Part shown: positions 2,822 through 25,243 of the stretch, in pieces | Numbering within the stretch: the stretch's first letter is position 1 | Layout of the letters: every line of letters starts with the position of its first letter | From: a virus | Strand: one strand, 5' to 3' | Length of the DNA: 64,000 nt | IMG/VR virus record: IMGVR_UViG_3300028394_000066 | Span: 1 to 64,000 of that record | Made by a program: the position numbers and the translations under genes | Notes under the pieces: model-generated | The model's database searches: none | Told to the model about the DNA's origin: nothing | What the model saw: the letters and a program-made list of their open reading frames with translations, nothing else

Positions 2822-3349
2822 GTGAAAATGAACTACTATCCAAATGACCCCTGGGGAAAGTGGCCCAACCCGCACAAGAACCAGGACTACAAAAAGCAGG
2901 TCCCTTCACCTAAGCCTGTCACTATTGACTCGCTGTTCCCGAACCTTGACCGTTTCACCATTGGTTGGGGAACTCTTCTCGATGACCTTCAGACGGTCAC
3001 CAAGACTCGCACGTCGTACCCTCCGTACGACATCGTTGAGCTTGACGACAACAAGTACGTTGTTAACGTAGCTGTTGCGGGATTCCGTCGCGAAGACATC
3101 ATCATCACGTCTGAGGACTCAACGCTCTCCATCACTGGGTCGTACGGTCTTAAGAAAGAGCAGGATGAGAGTTCTCTTGAGGAGAAGTTCATCCACAACG
3201 GTATTGCGCGCCGTGACTTCAATCTGAACTTCATGCTCGCTGAGCACGTTGAGATTGAGTCCGCAAAGTTGGAGGACGGCGTTTTGTCCGTTCACTTGTT
3301 CAAGAACACGCCTGAAGAGAAGTTGCCTAAGGTAATTGACATTCAGTAG
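2822..3349 (+). CDS. hsp20: small heat-shock protein (Hsp20/IbpA-like)
   Basis: YPPYDI...VAVAGF...HNGIARRDF...AKLEDGVLSV alpha-crystallin motifs. Confidence 0.95.
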   Translation: MKMNYYPNDPWGKWPNPHKNQDYKKQVPSPKPVTIDSLFPNLDRFTIGWGTLLDDLQTVTKTRTSYPPYDIVELDDNKYVVNVAVAGFRREDIIITSEDSTLSITGSYGLKKEQDESSLEEKFIHNGIARRDFNLNFMLAEHVEIESAKLEDGVLSVHLFKNTPEEKLPKVIDIQ

Positions 3350-3370
3350 TAATTCTGTAAACTGAACGTA

Positions 3371-3410
3371 GCTGGGTGGGGGGTTTCCTCCTTTCTTTTC
3401 CCCACCCAGC
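3371..3410 (+). promoter_or_regulatory. GC-rich hairpin with anti-SD loop (CCTCCTTTCT)
   Basis: GCTGGGTGGGG/CCCCACCCAGC 11-bp stem. Confidence 0.7.
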
Positions 3411-3415
3411 GTCTA

Positions 3416-3495
3416 GGGCCAGAAATGGTGTCGATTGGCTGTAAATCCCGCAAGTCGGAGCCGTCAAGACCCCAGTTCGATTCTGGGCTGGTCCA
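3416..3495 (+). ncRNA. tmRNA tRNA-like-domain-only RNA (no tag ORF)
   Basis: acceptor GGGCCAG/CTGGTCC+A with G3:U70; unpaired D-loop AAATGGTGTCGA; TTGGC/GTCAA helix; GAC linker; T-arm CCCAG-TTCGATT-CTGGG. Confidence 0.85.
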
Positions 3496-3503
3496 CAAGT
3501 AAA

Positions 3504-3543
3504 GCCCCCCACACTAACTGTGTGAGGGGCCTACTTATTTTTG
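3504..3543. terminator. hairpin terminator between convergent units
   Basis: GCCCCCCACAC..GTGTGAGGGGC stem followed by a T-rich tract. Confidence 0.65.
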
Positions 3544-4275
3544 TTAGATAGAGATTGCTTTAGCGAATACTACGCGAGAAGCCATCTTTGAAGCGCTAAT
3601 AATAGCGATGGGTGCCGACATTGCTAGCACTAACCCCGCCCACATACGCGGTTCAAGGAAGTCGTAGTCCCAGTAGTTGATGGTGTGGAACCCGTTAGCA
3701 AGAACTGCTACTAGTCCAAACCCTACCATTCCCAGAATCGCACCAAAGGTGCGCTCCTTCTTGCCGTTTTCTTGGATGCGAGACGCCAGAATGAGGTACG
3801 CAACAAGGAAGAGCAAGTACATCAACTCAATGAAGAAGAAGAACAGGCCCCCCATCCAAGGAACGGTTAGTCCAACGAATTCGGCAACTGCAGTGATTCC
3901 GTTGTAAGACACAATTGCGGATGCAATAAATGCAATAGTAATTCCAACAATCCAAATGTAAAGAACAACTTTCTGGTCAATCTGAACTCCTGGTGCTCGA
4001 GCGGCCTCTTGACGCTCATAGCGAGCCTCTTGCTGCTCACGGTTGCGCTCACGAGATGTCTTGCCTCGTCGCGCCCTAGGGGCCTTTACGGGCTCCTCAG
4101 AGGGCTCTACGCCCTTCATCCACTCTAAAACTTCTGGTGTAGTGGGTTCTGCCATGTCTTCCTCTTTCTTTTGTCCGCTGTTGTTTCGTACAACGGAATC
4201 ACTGTCATTTGGCATTGGTGTTTTCTCTTTCCCTATATATCGTAGCCGATTTCGGCTCTCATCAGTGTATGACAT
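3544..4275 (-). CDS. multi-pass membrane protein, DUF2637-like (true start may be downstream)
   Basis: about 4 hydrophobic helices; SAIVSY...LANGFH...API pattern. Confidence 0.7.
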   Translation of the reverse strand: MSYTDESRNRLRYIGKEKTPMPNDSDSVVRNNSGQKKEEDMAEPTTPEVLEWMKGVEPSEEPVKAPRARRGKTSRERNREQQEARYERQEAARAPGVQIDQKVVLYIWIVGITIAFIASAIVSYNGITAVAEFVGLTVPWMGGLFFFFIELMYLLFLVAYLILASRIQENGKKERTFGAILGMVGFGLVAVLANGFHTINYWDYDFLEPRMWAGLVLAMSAPIAIISASKMASRVVFAKAISI

Positions 4276-4376: not shown

Positions 4377-5357
4377 GTGGCAATTCTCGGCACAGGTATT
4401 CAGGACGGACTGCTCCTCAAGCCAGTCAAATATCAATGGGCAATGGACCTTTACAACCAAGCGGTTGCAAACACATGGTTTCCCAACGAAATTCAACTCG
4501 GTGAGGACATTGCCGATTTTAAAAAGATGTCGGATGAAGAGCAGCACGCTATTACATTCCTCATGTCCTTCTTCAACCCTTCGGAACTGATTGTCAACAA
4601 GGCACTGGCGTTTGGCGTCTACCCCTACCTCAACGCCGCCGAGGCACACCTGTACCTCGCCAAACAGATGTGGGAAGAAGCGAATCACTGCATGTCGTTC
4701 GAGTACATCCTCGAGACGTTCCCCGTGGACCGTGAAAAAATCTATGCGCAGCACGTAGAGCACCCCGCAATTGCCAACAAGGAAGCTTTTGAAGTTAAAT
4801 ACATCAAGCGCATGTCCGACGAGCGTCTTGACATCACTACGGTTGAGGGCAAGCAGGACTTCGTCCGCAACCTCATCGCGTACAGCGTCATCATGGAAGG
4901 TATCTGGTTCTACACAGGGTTCATGGTCGCCTTGTCGTTCCGCCAGCGCAACCTGCTCCGAAACTTCGGTTCGCTCGTTGACTGGATTGTTCGTGACGAG
5001 TCGCTCCACCTCAAGTTCGGAATCAACCTCATCCTCACGGTGTTGGAAGAAAACCCAGAGATTGTTACCGACGACTTTGTGGGCGAGGTTAAGATGATGA
5101 TTCTTGACGCTGTGGACATGGAGGTTGAGTACAACAAGGCTATGCTCCCCAACGGTATTCTCGGCCTTAACCATGACTACATCAGCACTTACACTAAGTA
5201 CATTGCTGACCGTCGTCTTGAGGAACTTGGCTTTGCGCCGCACTACAACGTCAGCAATCCCGCAAAGTGGATGGCTACGGCTAACGACACTCTGCAGTTG
5301 GTTAACTTTTTCGAGAGCACAAACACCTCGTATGAGGTCAACGGGGCAACCAAATAA
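4377..5357 (+). CDS. nrdB: ribonucleotide reductase beta subunit, class Ic-type
   Basis: WFPNEI, EEANH, MEGIWFY, RDESLH, NFFE motifs; Phe at radical-Tyr position (HCMSF), Glu first ligand (PSELIV). Confidence 0.95.
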   Translation: MAILGTGIQDGLLLKPVKYQWAMDLYNQAVANTWFPNEIQLGEDIADFKKMSDEEQHAITFLMSFFNPSELIVNKALAFGVYPYLNAAEAHLYLAKQMWEEANHCMSFEYILETFPVDREKIYAQHVEHPAIANKEAFEVKYIKRMSDERLDITTVEGKQDFVRNLIAYSVIMEGIWFYTGFMVALSFRQRNLLRNFGSLVDWIVRDESLHLKFGINLILTVLEENPEIVTDDFVGEVKMMILDAVDMEVEYNKAMLPNGILGLNHDYISTYTKYIADRRLEELGFAPHYNVSNPAKWMATANDTLQLVNFFESTNTSYEVNGATK

Positions 5358-5697: not shown

Positions 5698-5769
5698 TCC
5701 CCGCTAGCTCAATGGCAGAGCACCGCACTGTTAATGCGTAGGTTCGTGGTTCGAGTCCACGGTGGGGAG
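5698..5769 (+). tRNA. tRNA-Asn(GTT)
   Basis: cloverleaf; anticodon loop CTGTTAA; GGTTCGAGTCC T-arm; no encoded CCA. Confidence 0.93.
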
Positions 5770-5804
5770 CGGGCATTTGCCCATAAATAACTAAGGAGAA
5801 GTAC

Positions 5805-6008
5805 ATGAACTGGTTCACCCCAGAACGTCGCTTGGCGACGTACAACACCGTCGCAAGCCTTGTCGGAGTTGCTATCGCACTAAACGTCATTGACCAGACA
5901 ATGGGCAATGACATCCTCAACCTGGTTACTCAGATTGTTAGTTCAGTAGCTACTATCGGAGCTCTTGTAGCTCCGTTGCTTGCACGCCTTCACGTACCAA
6001 AGCAGTAA
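5805..6008 (+). CDS. small two-TM membrane protein, holin-like
   Basis: SD AAGGAG; two hydrophobic helices. Confidence 0.7.
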   Translation: MNWFTPERRLATYNTVASLVGVAIALNVIDQTMGNDILNLVTQIVSSVATIGALVAPLLARLHVPKQ

Positions 6009-6013
6009 GGGAC

Positions 6014-6035
6014 GGGCCCCTTAGGGGGCCCTTTT
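6014..6035 (+). terminator. hairpin/terminator
   Basis: GGGCCCC-TTAG-GGGGCCC-TTTT. Confidence 0.6.
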
Positions 6036-6037
6036 CT

Positions 6038-6110
6038 CCCTCCATAGCTCAGGGGATAGAGCATCGGCCTTCTAATCCGTGTGTCGCTGGTTCGATTCCA
6101 GCTGGGGGGA
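6038..6110 (+). tRNA. tRNA-Arg(TCT)
   Basis: cloverleaf; anticodon loop CTTCTAA; anticodon stem imperfect. Confidence 0.88.
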
Positions 6111-6113
6111 CAT

Positions 6114-6186
6114 GCCTCAATAGCTCATCTGGTAGAGCATCTCACTTGTAATGAGAAGGTGGCGGGTTCAAGTCCTGCTTGAGGCT
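6114..6186 (+). tRNA. tRNA-Thr(TGT)
   Basis: GCCTCAA/TTGAGGC acceptor; TCTCA-CTTGTAA-TGAGA anticodon arm. Confidence 0.95.
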
Positions 6187-6204
6187 CGCCTAGAAAGGAA
6201 ACAA

Positions 6205-19604: not shown

Positions 19605-21095
19605 ATGGCTACCCTTTCCAGCCTTACGGATAGAGTTCGCGTTGAGCTAGGCGACCTCGGTAAATCCTTTGTGACTCAGTTTGTTGCTGATGGAACAACC
19701 AATAGATTTAAGCTCCACTATTCTCCTTTAGACGGTACTGGAGTAATGGTGTTTAAGGACGGCGTTGATGTCTCTAACGCTTGTTCCGTAGAGGAATCTA
19801 CTGGAGTCCTTGTTACCGACACACTTCCCGCGGATGGGGCAGAGTTTACTGTTAGCGGAAATTATTACCGCTACTTTACGCAAACTGAAATGAATACGCT
19901 CATTAATGACGCGCTTGTTCAGCACACCGCTCACGCACGGGATTCAATTGGAAGACAGATTACTCTTGATAATCTTCCCGTTATTGAAGAGTACCCTGTA
20001 GCCATCTACGCGGTCACCTTAGCGCTTTACACGCTTGCTACCGACTCCGCCTTTGATATTGACATTCAGGCCCCTGACGGGGTGACTATACCCCGCGCAG
20101 AGCGCTTCCGTCAGCTCATGGACATGGTAAACACCCGCCGTGAGCAATACCGCGAGCTGTGTACCCTTCTTGGTGTGGGTATGTACAAGATTGACGTGTT
20201 CTCTCTTCGTAGAATTTCTTTGGCTACTGGACGATACATCCCCGTTTACAAGCCTCAAGAGGTCGATGACCGCTCGTTCCCCGAACGCGTGGACCTTCCT
20301 ATTCCTGTTTACGGAGACTACGAGACTCCTTGGCCTACACAATCATCCGAGCTTACTGCGTACCAGGGTCGCGAATACTACTCAGAGATTCCCTTTACTG
20401 CTAGCCTTTACCTTTCTGCTACAGTCACTAACGTTACTGGTTCGGGAACTGCGGTCACCTACACTGCTGCAAACAACTACGCTGTTGGTCAAGCAGTAAC
20501 AATCACTGGTGTAACGCCTACTGCTTACAACTTGACAAACGCGGTTATAACTTCGGCAACAGCCACTACATTCACAGTTTCCAGTGCTGTTACTGGAACC
20601 TATGTTTCAGGTGGAATTGTCGACAAGAGTGCAGCCGTTACCCTGGCTACAGGTACTGGAGCCACGATTACTTACACCGCAAATAACAAGTTTGCTGTTG
20701 GCGACCGAGTGACTGTTTACGGGGTTTCTCCATCCGAGTACAACCTTACTGGTGCGTATGTTACAGCAGCAACGTCTACTACCTTCAAGGTTGAAGGTGC
20801 AGCCAAAGCAGCGTTTGTTTCTGGTGGAACAGCGCTTCGTATTGGAAACGGCGTTATTGCTAGAGCCCTGCCGCAGCGTGGTGCCCCTCTGGCAGCGCAG
20901 AACTTTACTCTTACGGTAACAGATAACTACAACGGAACCTACGTTGCTAAGATTAGCCTTACCTCCAGCCAAACACTTATTATGGCAAACCGAACTTACT
21001 GGCAGATTGCTACTGTTGACCCTATAACAGACGTAAAGACAGAAGTTCTTGGAGGAAATTTTTTCACTGTTCGTAGAAGCCAGGCTATGGTCTAA
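19605..21095 (+). CDS. head-tail adaptor/neck protein with two beta-rich accessory repeats
   Basis: position; repeats [27 protein letters not shown] / [27 protein letters not shown]. Confidence 0.65.
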
Positions 21096-24000
21096 TGCCG
21101 ATTAACCCAGATGCACCTATTTATCCCGAAGCGGATACAAGCCTGCTGCAAAATGGAGCAGAGCCGATTACTACTGTACCTGCGCCTCCATATAGCAGCC
21201 CAGATTACCAAGTTCCTAATGACCAGGTTCAGCCTGAAGTAGACATTGCTCTTCTTCCTGGAGTTCCCAATCAAAGAGGTCCCGCAGGTCCCACTGGTTC
21301 TACAGGACCAACTGGACCAATTGGGGCAGCCAGTACGGTAACTGGACCAACTGGTCCCACAGGAGCGACAGGGCTAACAGGCGCTACGGGTGCTACTGGT
21401 GCTACTGGTGCTACTGGGTTGCAGGGTGTGCAGGGCGTAACTGGTCCTACAGGCGCACAAGGAATTCAAGGTTCTCAAGGTATTCAAGGAAATATAGGAC
21501 CGACAGGTGCTCAGGGACCGACAGGTGCCGCGTCTACTGTCACGGGACCGACAGGTCCTACTGGTGCCGCGTCAACAGTTACTGGTCCAACTGGACCTAC
21601 TGGACTTGTTGGTGCAACTGGTCCGACAGGCGCGACGGGAGCAACTGGGGCAGCGTCGCAGGTTACGGGTCCAACTGGTGCGACAGGTGCCGCTTCAACG
21701 GTTACAGGTCCGACTGGACCTACAGGTGCTCAGGGTATTCAAGGACCGACAGGTTCTACAGGTATTACTGGTCCGACTGGTCCGACTGGTGCCGCTTCGA
21801 CTGTGACAGGTCCGACAGGTGCAACTGGCGCAACAGGAGCAGCGAGCACTATCACTGGTCCAACGGGTTCCACGGGTTTAACTGGGCCTACTGGACCCAC
21901 TGGTTCTCAGGGTGTGACTGGACCTACAGGTCCTACAGGCGCACAAGGTATCCAAGGACCCACTGGCACTCAAGGACCTACTGGTGCTCAAGGAACACAG
22001 GGCATTCAAGGTGTCACAGGTCCTACTGGACCTACAGGTGCTATCGGTGCGACTGGACCAACAGGTGCTTTAGGACCGACTGGTGTCAATGGTGACAGTT
22101 TTCAATTCCGAGGTGCTTACGGTGGCGCAGGGATTATTTACAACCTCAACGATGTAGTCGCATACAACGGCTCTTCGTACATTTGTCTAAACAACAACAC
22201 CAGTGGCTATCAACCAGACTCACTAATATCTTGGGATATTTTTGTAGAAAAAGGGGCAACTGGTCCTACTGGCGCTACTGGTGGAACAGGCGCTCAAGGA
22301 GTCACGGGACCCACTGGTCCCACTGGCGCAACAGGGGCGCAAGGACCCACTGGTTCGACAGGACCAACAGGCGCAGCAAGCACTGTCACAGGTCCCACGG
22401 GTCCAACTGGTGCAACAGGAAATGCTTCAACAGTTACAGGACCGACTGGCCCAACAGGACCTACTGGCGCAACAGGCGCAGCGAGTACAGTTACTGGTCC
22501 AACTGGTCCAACTGGTGCTCAAGGTGACGCTTCTACAGTCACTGGTCCCACTGGACCAACAGGTGCTACGGGAGCAAACAGCACTGTCACAGGTCCAACT
22601 GGACCAACAGGTCCGACTGGAGCCACAGGCGCAGCGAGCACTGTAACTGGTCCAACAGGTCCGACTGGAAATACTGGCGCTACTGGTCCAACAGGAGCAA
22701 ACTTCACGGGCTATGACTATGAAATTCACGTTAGTCAAGTAGATGGAAATGATACTACTGGTAATGGTGATTTGCTTACTCCAGTTGCTTCTATTACTAA
22801 GGCATTGACTTTAGTAGATTCACAGCGTAAAACCATTATTGTTCACCCAGGAACGTACACTGAAAGTCCATCGATAACTACCCAATACACAACCTTGACT
22901 GGCCCAGGGCTTCTTGGCGGAAACATTGTAATCTCTGGAACGGTAAGCACAAGTACTGGCTGTACTATCTCAGGCATAAAGATGACAAACCTTACTGTCA
23001 CTACGCCCACTGGTACAGGAAACGTAAACATCCTCAACTGTGAAGTTTCTGGAACTTTTACAAAGAGCAGTAATGCTGACTACACCGTTCTTCGTTTGTG
23101 TGATTTTAATGCCGCAAGTATTACTGGGGCTGGATTACTGGCTATCTTTGGTGGCAATCCAAACTTTATAACCGTCAACAATGCCAGTGCAAATGTAATT
23201 GTTAAGAGTGCCGTTACCGTCTCTCCAGTCCTAACTGCTGGAACACTGAGCCTTGTAGATTCTGTAGTCGGTGCTGCTGTGACCAATGCCGTGACATCTG
23301 CTGCTTCAAGCGTCATTACCTTAGCAAACTGCCAATTACTGACCTCAGCACTAAACAATGTCGCACCAGTTGTTTTAAGCGGCTTCTACTCAATCCTCAA
23401 CTGTGTATACGATAAGCCAAACTCAACCTTAGTTGCTTCGTCTGGTACTGGTGGCACAACAAACGCCGTTGATTACTTCCAATACATCAACGCAGATAAG
23501 TTCATCACTCAAGGTGGAACTTCATCTCAGTTTGTGAAGGGTGACGGCTCTCTTGACTCCACGGGACCTGTTTCGCCAACAGGTCCAACTGGACCAACTG
23601 GCGCAACAGGTCCCACAGGAGCCACTGGCGCTGCTAGTACGGTGACGGGTCCGACTGGACCAACTGGTGCGGCGTCAACTGTAACTGGTCCAACGGGTGC
23701 GACTGGCGCAGCGAGCACGGTTACTGGACCCACAGGTCCCACAGGAGCCACTGGCGCAGCCTCGACTGTCACAGGTCCGACAGGTGCCACTGGCGCAACT
23801 GGCGCAACAGGTCCAACAGGACCAACTGGCGCAACTGGACCAACAGGGGCGGCGTCTACAGTTACGGGTCCGACGGGTGCTCAGGGCGATAAGGGTGGAC
23901 TCAAATACTACTTTAACTCAGACATTTCGTGGGAGAATGACGTAAATTCAGGAAATATCAGATTTTTTGCCGATACCGCAGCAACAACTAATAGTATTGA

Positions 24001-25243
24001 CGTCTCTCTGACTACATATGACGGAGCAACAGTAACAACATACCTTTCGACGTGGGCAGACTCCACTAGTACTGTCAAGGGTCAACTCATCGTAAAAAGC
24101 AACACAAATGGTGACAACACCTACGCTATTTTTAACATTACAGGGATAAGTCTTGTTGCTGGTGCGGGATATCGACTCGGAGTTACATATGTCTCGGGAA
24201 CAGTCCCATCTAATGCTGAACTGGTTGTTGTAGAGTTTATTCGTACAGGAGATAAGGGAAACACGGGTCCTACTGGGGCAACTGGGGCAACTGGACCAAC
24301 AGGTCCCACGGGTGCGACTGGAGCAGCGTCCACAGTTACAGGTCCAACTGGACCCTCTGGAACCCTCACTCTTCAGCAAACTATTACTGCAACTGGACCT
24401 CAATCTCCTACTTTGACTGGTGCTCCTGCCCTCGTCTTTGCTGTAGTTATCGGAGCAGGTGGCGGTGGTGGTAACGGAAACAACGTCAACTACCAAGTAG
24501 GTGGCGGTGGAGGTGCTGGAGCCGTAGTCTGCGGTTGGGTCCCTAAACAATCAACGTGCTTTATTGGTACTGGTGGCTCTGGCGCAACTGGCGCGACTGC
24601 GGCTACTACTGGTGGCTCGTCTTACTACGCAGGTCTTTTTGCTCAAGGTGGTCTTCTTGGCGGTTCTGCTGGTGGAGGTGGTACGTCCAGTAACGGTGCT
24701 GGTGCGGGCGGTTCGGGAACGACCACAACCGCTGGGTCAACAACTGGTGCTGCTGGTTCCTCGCTGGGGTACTCAGTCGGGGGTGCTGGTGGTTCGGCAA
24801 CTACTGCAACTTCTACAGGAACTGGGAGCGCTGGTAGCGTCGGTGTCTCTGGAGGTGGAGGTGGAGGTCGAGTAGTCATCACTACCGCAGCAAGTTCTCC
24901 GACAGGTGGCGCTGGTGGAGCAGGACAAGTCGGCGGGGGTGGCGGGTCGGCGGCGTCTAGCGTCACATCTGCTACAGGACAGGCTACTGGCGGTGCTGGC
25001 GGAGAAGGTGCTTATGGTGCTGGAACAGCAGCGACAGCAACTACTGGAACTGCAACAGGAAAACAGTCTGGCGGGGCAGGTGGAACTGGCTATCTCGGTG
25101 CTGGGACAACAGGTACTGCTGGAACTGGCACCACCGCTCGTACAGGAGGCGCTGGAGGCTCTGGTGGGGGCGGTGGTGGAGCCGCGACTTCTGGAGGAAC
25201 TGGAGGCGCTGGCGGTAACGGTGCTGTACTGATTTACTGGTAG
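21095..25243 (+). CDS. collagen-like fibre protein with Gly-rich C-terminal domain
   Basis: long G-P-T/G-A-T tracts interrupted by globular inserts. Confidence 0.9.
21278..24362 (+). repeat. collagen Gly-X-Thr coding repeats (4 tracts)
   Basis: 9-nt degenerate ggtccaact/ggtgcgaca units and a recurring ASTVTGPT unit. Confidence 0.9.

Follow-up and report, generated by a model that had tools for sequence, protein, structure and literature searches.

The DNA analysed here (the window, a stretch of 64,000 nt from a viral record in IMG/VR) contains an 80-nt element at 3416-3495 on the plus strand. Its sequence and its relatives support this element as a functional gene for an 80-nt tmRNA that consists of the tRNA-like domain only (TLD-only), of the DS6A type. 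The RNA, referred to below as mini-tmRNA, probably acts as an alanyl-chargeable partner of the host SmpB that competes with the host tmRNA, blunting trans-translation and tagging. Bacteria rescue stalled ribosomes and tag proteins mainly through the tmRNA-SmpB system. If this reading is true, a phage RNA able to hijack or block that system would be a compact natural probe of it. The gene and its parts are as follows.

3416-3495, plus strand: mini-tmRNA (TLD-only tmRNA) gene, 80 nt, from sequence, leave-one-out covariance model, covariation and DS6A-like architecture
3416-3422/3488-3494, plus strand: acceptor stem, 7 bp, GGGCCAG/CTGGTCC
3418/3492, plus strand: G3:U70 of the acceptor stem
3423-3434, plus strand: D-loop, unpaired, AAAUGGUGUCGA
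3435-3441/3461-3467, plus strand: helix 2, UUGGC/GUCAA core
3442-3447, plus strand: A-rich internal loop
3448-3458, plus strand: inner hairpin
3468-3470, plus strand: GAC linker
3471-3487, plus strand: T arm, CCCAG-UUCGAUU-CUGGG, perfect
3495, plus strand: discriminator A (A73)

The acceptor stem, G3:U70 pair, discriminator A, unpaired D-loop, helix, GAC linker and T arm that an earlier note on this DNA had listed are all present at these positions on the plus strand. The same note placed a C-GCAA-G tetraloop in the centre of the element. Covariation gives a different structure, an inner CCG/CGG stem with a 5-nt loop, CAAGU (alignment columns 33-35/41-43). This 3-bp hairpin lies within the 23 nt that separate the strands of helix 2, as counted from its UUGGC/GUCAA core. 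By comparison with relatives, helix 2 spans seven positions. One of these is a U.C mismatch in the window copy, which counts against the main reading. The D-stem, anticodon arm, pseudoknots, resume codon and tag ORF are all absent from 3416-3495. The 3' CCA is not encoded, and the same is true of the three tRNA genes of this phage. G3:U70 and A73 are the alanine identity elements for AlaRS.

Standard annotation, including ARAGORN, the Rfam cut-offs and the GenBank records, overlooks mini-tmRNA genes. On the window genome, ARAGORN reports three tRNAs only, misses the element at 3416-3495 and calls no tmRNA. Rfam at gathering thresholds likewise lists these three tRNAs and not the mini-tmRNA. 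When 321 nt are searched with Rfam to E 10, the best related match is tmRNA_permuted (RF04321), which scores 14.7 bits against a cut-off of 47 and covers the 3' half only. The tRNA (RF00005), RF00023 and mitochondrial tmRNA (RF02544) models have no match to the mini-tmRNA in this 321-nt search, even at E 10. RF00023 scores some 82-nt relatives at 42-54 bits, though it is blind to the window copy. Neither the region nor the element has a blastn match in 50,697 phage records, and an exact 28-mer search and an Hsp20-based locus search in IMG/VR find nothing.

The covariance model R2 was built from 13 other phage sequences, with the window and DS6A both left out. In the 79-kb genome, this model places the mini-tmRNA at exactly 3416-3495 (91.0 bits, E about 4e-25, full length). 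It is the sole significant match in that genome, and the three true tRNAs fall short of E 1. On the mini-tmRNA models, no true tRNA exceeds about 23-26 bits, whereas family members reach at least 38 bits. The comparison with Rfam tmRNA and tRNA models that the earlier note had proposed therefore yields no better fit to a tRNA, since ARAGORN and Rfam are null and the family covariance model gives 91.0 bits.

The same models recover the element of Mycobacterium phage DS6A at full length (JN698994 28478-28557), with 63.7 bits for R1 and 62.7 bits for R2. The GenBank record is unannotated at this position. The DS6A inner motif, AAA-CCG...CGG, is the same as that of the window. This motif and the full-length matches therefore place the window element as a DS6A-type member. 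Its TLD-only identity, proposed in the earlier note, is upheld by the covariation described below, by the leave-one-out model that finds both the window and DS6A, and by the lack of a second piece. DS6A is known to carry a 'TLD only' tmRNA (tmRNA Website tmID 11587; Hudson, Lau and Williams 2014, PMC4131195; PMC11915505). The 2025 tmRNA database holds only 9 'standard, no CDS' sequences, among which DS6A is named (PMC11915505). Bacillus phage G, which the earlier note named as a TLD-only precedent, is listed simply as having ssrA, and the phage precedent is DS6A. No account of a widespread phage family of TLD-only tmRNAs came up in full-text literature searches. Two cultured Streptomyces phages, BRock (KX925554.1 97143-97220, minus strand) and LuckySocke (OR725497.1 17977-18054, plus strand), contain unannotated 78-nt mini-tmRNAs that score 47-53 bits. 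Both copies lie between the tRNA-Val and tRNA-Ser genes of tRNA clusters.

A degenerate scan of IMG/VR, in which only TGG..TCGA, a gap of 15-45 nt, GAC, the T-loop and a 3' TCCA were fixed, finds at least 119 loci. In phages, TLD-only RNAs are thus not rare, contrary to the earlier note. Among the matches listed, 117 are closed by a perfect 7/7 acceptor stem that the pattern did not demand, and element lengths are 62-92 nt, mostly 79-80. Across the 14 sequences nearest the window, 99.7% of cells are paired and compensatory changes occur in 14 of the 22 pairs. The sole unpaired cell is the U.C of the window copy in helix 2. The wider alignment contains 99 model-aligned matches, made up of 97 mini-tmRNAs and two weak ones at tRNA level. 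Here 97.4% of cells are paired and 20 of the 22 pairs show compensatory changes, far above shuffled and slid controls. Both alignments support the fold, and this answers the call of the earlier note for covariation across related phages. The minimum-energy fold from RNAfold, which pairs the D-loop with the inner hairpin, is rejected because that helix is only 62.8% paired in relatives; it shows almost no compensatory change.

In a second scan, the pattern was limited to the D-loop, AGAC and the T-loop, and the acceptor end was left free. Its complete listing has 59 loci and 45 unique sequences, or 44 after removal of one chance match. With the acceptor end unconstrained, G3:U70 is found in 42 of the 44 unique sequences and A:U in the remaining two. 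The discriminator A73 is present in all 44 and the 7/7 acceptor stem in 42. Because these features are kept without any constraint from the search, the alanine identity set is under selection. Among the unpaired positions of the wider family that were likewise unconstrained, two adenines on the 5' side of the internal loop stand out (96% and 91% A). The adenine next after the inner hairpin (89% A) stands out as well, and the CC/GG pairs of the hairpin are conserved too.

Conservation of the RNA exceeds that of its surroundings. Where the neighbouring Hsp20 proteins of two phages have only 40-52% identity, the mini-tmRNA is still about 75-82% identical. Together with the tRNA genes, it is nearly the sole DNA that can still be aligned between these phages. 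When the subfamily pattern is compared with about 185,000 bacterial and archaeal species genomes, there are 16 matches, of which 14 are by chance and two are real. Both real copies are on MAG contigs of about 4 kb and so give no clue to the host. With only two real copies in so many genomes, the RNA is phage-borne and is not a prophage or attachment-site fragment. The element is also rejected as an attP or integration site, since it has both TLD halves, the phage has no integrase and no sequenced bacterial chromosome contains the subfamily.

The window lies within a 79,213-bp IMG/VR record that is estimated to be 82% complete. The encoded proteins include a T4-type large terminase, portal, capsid protein, tail sheath, baseplate J, family A DNA polymerase and SNF2 helicase, so the virus is a contractile-tailed phage. 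It is probably a freshwater phage, and relatives of the genes that flank the mini-tmRNA are present in freshwater and lake runs. By large terminase, the nearest cultured phages are the Streptomyces phages BRock, LuckySocke and kin (52% aa identity), followed by Bacillus phage BCD7. An actinobacterial host is therefore offered as a weak guess from terminase similarity. The DNA of a 1382-aa ORF (window 21095-25243) matches a repetitive part of another phage contig (G003, 31.4-33.5 kb) many times over, in repeated and overlapping alignments, which suggests that the ORF may encode an internally repetitive structural or fibre protein.

The neighbourhood of the mini-tmRNA contains the following features.

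2822-3349, plus strand: hsp20 (small heat-shock protein), Pfam HSP20, E 3.9e-15, directly upstream of the mini-tmRNA
3336-3363, plus strand: putative sigma-70-like promoter, TTGACA 3336-3341, 16 nt spacer, TAAACT 3358-3363, 10/12 consensus matches
3371-3410, plus strand: GC-rich leader hairpin, 13 pairs, no U-tract, RNAfold -25.9 kcal/mol, ends 5 nt before G1
3497-3536, plus strand: terminator-like hairpin followed by a T-run, TTTTT 3538-3542, from sequence and RNAfold
5698-6187: three tRNA genes, Asn-GTT, Arg-TCT and Thr-TGT, none with encoded CCA

The hsp20 gene upstream of the element and the terminator after it, both of which appear in the earlier note, are found at these positions. A simple terminator scan did not report 3497-3536 because the stem has internal mismatches. 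The hairpin and T-run at 3497-3542 could terminate the transcripts of both the mini-tmRNA and the convergent minus-strand gene at 3544-4275. The first and second tRNA genes are separated by a 67-aa ORF (5805-6008) and a terminator-like hairpin. In the tRNA cluster of a related phage contig (L027:5836-5909), ARAGORN reports a tRNA with a four-base anticodon (gacg), which could be a frameshift-suppressor-like tRNA or an artefact.

A homologue of hsp20 (40-52% aa identity) ends 54-108 nt upstream of the mini-tmRNA, or 242 nt in one locus, in 17 of the 57 subfamily loci. Promoter-like sequences of the form TTGACA/TTGAAA, 16-17 nt and TAnACT are present in 16 of 17 distinct hsp20-linked relatives. 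In these relatives, the corresponding position has a GC-rich hairpin whose sequence varies and whose end lies 0-5 nt ahead of G1. The inferred role of this hairpin is that of a leader, a processing element or a 3' cap for the hsp20 mRNA. The -35 TTGACA (within 3336-3349) is written in the I-D-I codons of the IXI motif at the Hsp20 C-terminus and is kept in relatives. A single stretch of DNA thus seems to serve both the IXI motif and the putative promoter. In contigs of one lake metatranscriptome (X7), a relative of hsp20 is covered and 3352-3539 is uncovered, a gap that carries no weight for or against the small RNA.

Other members of the family have other neighbours. Same-strand tRNA genes lie within 400 nt of the mini-tmRNA in 20 of the 57 subfamily loci, and some are only 1-3 nt away; this closeness fits tRNA-like processing of the mini-tmRNA. 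In another large carrier group, the mini-tmRNA is flanked by the genes for the prohead protease (Peptidase_S78) and the major capsid protein. About 24 loci (L040-L158, for example L056 and L044) have it on the coding strand inside a late structural operon. The hsp20-linked, tRNA-linked and capsid-operon settings differ, so no protein partner is conserved across the family.

SmpB is absent from the window phage (79-kb record) and from 36 other carriers, 14 of which are at least 90% complete. No full-length tmRNA is found in the window phage or in these 36 carriers, where the RF00023 matches are 82-nt mini forms. The scan of the whole genome for a second tmRNA piece or smpB, which the earlier note had recommended, thus finds neither in the 79-kb record. 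The window phage has no CCA-adding enzyme and no tyrosine or serine integrase. Peptidyl-tRNA hydrolase (Pth) is found in none of the 37 carriers. An RF-1/ArfB-like domain occurs in one of the 37, which is not the window phage. In that carrier (L243), a 135-aa ArfB-like ORF with an RF-1/GGQ domain (G059:C1:58423-58608, 51.7 bits) lies about 4.6 kb from the mini-tmRNA.

A search of 32 phage records with a close NrdB finds no mini-tmRNA, and the weak RF00023 matches in these records are ordinary tRNAs. This null result (0/32) counts against the main reading. One contig with a close nrdB (L003, IMGVR_UViG_3300032328_000544) contains a one-piece tmRNA at 4432-4787, with 125.6 bits on RF00023 and the tag AKTRSAFALAA. 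Its nrdB is 85.6% identical in nucleotides (95% aa) to that of the window, and little else is common to both phages. A recent deletion from a full tmRNA to the mini form by way of this phage is not demonstrated, as the two share little beyond nrdB.

The proposed competition with the host tmRNA builds on the tmRNA-type fold, its conservation and covariation, the retained alanine identity, the missing tag-coding part and the lack of a phage smpB. Host RNA polymerase would transcribe from the sigma-70-like promoter at 3336-3363 and through the leader hairpin. Host RNase P would then cut at G1, and after 3' trimming and CCA addition by host enzymes, the AlaRS of the host would charge the RNA with alanine by way of G3:U70 and A73. 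Bound by host SmpB and delivered by EF-Tu, it would compete with host tmRNA at stalled ribosomes. The mini-tmRNA lacks a resume codon and a tag ORF and so cannot add an ssrA degron. The predicted net effect is less host trans-translation and tagging in infection. The host would then be unable to tag and destroy incomplete proteins, or to complete rescue. According to Mao et al. 2009, cited through PMC4131195 and PMC11915505, tmRNA in E. coli is strongly inhibited by a TLD-only RNA resembling that of DS6A, whether or not this RNA can be charged, perhaps by titration of SmpB. The inhibition, as given in those citations, is independent of charging, yet the alanine identity is strongly conserved here, so SmpB titration alone may not fully explain the role of the RNA. 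Both SmpB titration and tag-less rescue have been discussed for DS6A and for organellar CDS-less tmRNAs (PMC4131195, PMC11915505).

Productive tag-less rescue is a possible but clearly less likely function. The alanyl-mini-tmRNA and SmpB would take over the nascent chain on non-stop ribosomes, and host factors would free the ribosome with no degron added. Ribosomes might in this way be kept available in infection, for example during host mRNA degradation. The alanine identity that persists without a search constraint (42 and 44 of 44 for G3:U70 and A73) fits this role. A TLD-only RNA also accepts peptide in vitro (PMC3895274), and CDS-less tmRNAs are retained with SmpB in mitochondria and some plastids (PMC11915505). 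However, the carriers encode no release route, given the counts for Pth and the ArfB-like domain, and only 47 of 97 members have a stop triplet in the internal loop. The DS6A-like RNA, as those citations describe it, inhibited tmRNA function in E. coli and did not replace it. It is improbable that the RNA has no role at the ribosome and serves instead to sequester, as a decoy or sponge, some other factor that binds tRNA or tmRNA, for example RNase R, EF-Tu, AlaRS or a defence nuclease that cleaves tRNAs. In many relatives the mini-tmRNA does lie amid phage tRNA genes, and tRNA or tmRNA fragments are reported in an anti-CRISPR complex and binding RNase R (PMC11662646). The conserved features, however, are specific to tmRNA (D-loop GG..UCGA, GAC linker and helix 2) and are not those of tRNAs in general, and no adjoining protein partner is conserved across lineages.

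Two further alternatives concern what the element is. Its derivation as a functionless remnant of a full phage tmRNA after a central deletion is very improbable. The full 356-nt tmRNA about 1.2 kb upstream of nrdB on contig L003 and the helix-2 mismatch of the window copy are consistent with such an origin, but the L003 phage is only distantly related overall. A remnant would also be at odds with an 80-nt architecture in at least 117 loci with compensatory changes, with an RNA that remains about 80% identical where the neighbouring Hsp20 is only 40-52% identical, and with a conserved promoter and leader hairpin. Least credible of all is that the element is either a decoding tRNA of unusual form, such as a D-armless tRNA-Ala, or the acceptor-bearing part of a permuted tmRNA in two pieces. 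In favour of this are the T arm, the acceptor stem, the alanine identity and the weak, partial tmRNA_permuted match described above. A decoding tRNA is contradicted by the lack of a 5-bp anticodon stem or 7-nt loop, as the inner hairpin is closed by 3 pairs around a loop of 4-5 nt, and by the absence of any tRNA model match at E 10 or ARAGORN call. In contrast to the two-piece forms (RF04321, RF01849-51), the acceptor strands are contiguous and in standard order within 80 nt, and the 79 kb yield no coding piece.

Competition with the host tmRNA through SmpB remains the preferred reading. A more elaborate proposal, which must be regarded as doubtful, is that hsp20 and the mini-tmRNA work as a conserved pair of genes for 'proteostasis takeover' in a lineage of freshwater myophages with genomes of about 90-95 kb. 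The mini-tmRNA would be transcribed early from a host-type promoter in the last hsp20 codons, be alanylated and enter stalled ribosomes, where translation would end without a degron, and Hsp20 would hold the untagged, truncated products. In a bolder variant, the conserved A-rich loop, which reads UAA here at 3442-3444, would be a zero-length tag that ends in a stop codon. A stop codon is present in 47 of 97 members, compared with 24 expected by shuffling, and the conserved core is N-A-A-R, not a stop; a stop codon is therefore not required.

The TLD-only type of tmRNA was already known from DS6A, which is essentially the sole published phage example, and the window adds a member from a freshwater lineage. 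The same design has been kept under selection in a freshwater phage lineage unrelated to DS6A. The window also adds a conserved unit of hsp20, promoter, leader hairpin and mini-tmRNA, and unbiased evidence of selection on the alanine identity set. The cultured Streptomyces phage carriers make the function of the mini-tmRNA directly testable.

The window element and that of DS6A are both of the 80-nt class and share the acceptor stem with G3:U70 and A73 and a D-loop GG..UCGA without a D-stem. Helix 2, the A-rich internal loop with the CCG/CGG mini-hairpin, the T arm and the absence of a tag ORF are also common to both. The linker is GAC in the window and CAC in DS6A, and the first pair of helix 2 in the window is U:A. 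The window phage is a probable freshwater phage, myovirus-like and about 90-95 kb in size, whereas DS6A is a 60-kb mycobacteriophage. Unlike that of DS6A, the window copy sits behind hsp20 with a putative promoter of its own. The BRock and LuckySocke elements have a window-like architecture and inner motif but are 78 nt long, have a GGAC linker and no noted hsp20 context, and come from phages of soil Streptomyces hosts.

The tRNA-like domain of the standard one-piece tmRNA (RF00023) is homologous to that of the window, with the G3:U70 acceptor, D-loop, helix 2a, (G)GAC and T arm. Compared with the standard form, the window copy is without pseudoknots, resume codon and tag ORF, which amount to about 275 nt in all. 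CCA is unencoded in both the window copy and the full tmRNA of L003. The organellar CDS-less tmRNAs of jakobid and other mitochondria (RF02544) likewise have a tRNA-like domain without a tag frame and are presumed partners of SmpB. CDS-less plastid tmRNAs of about 65 bp are found in Mallomonadaceae (PMC11915505). Most mitochondrial forms are permuted two-piece genes, whereas the window copy is in one piece. These organelles import a dedicated SmpB; the window phage must rely on that of its host.
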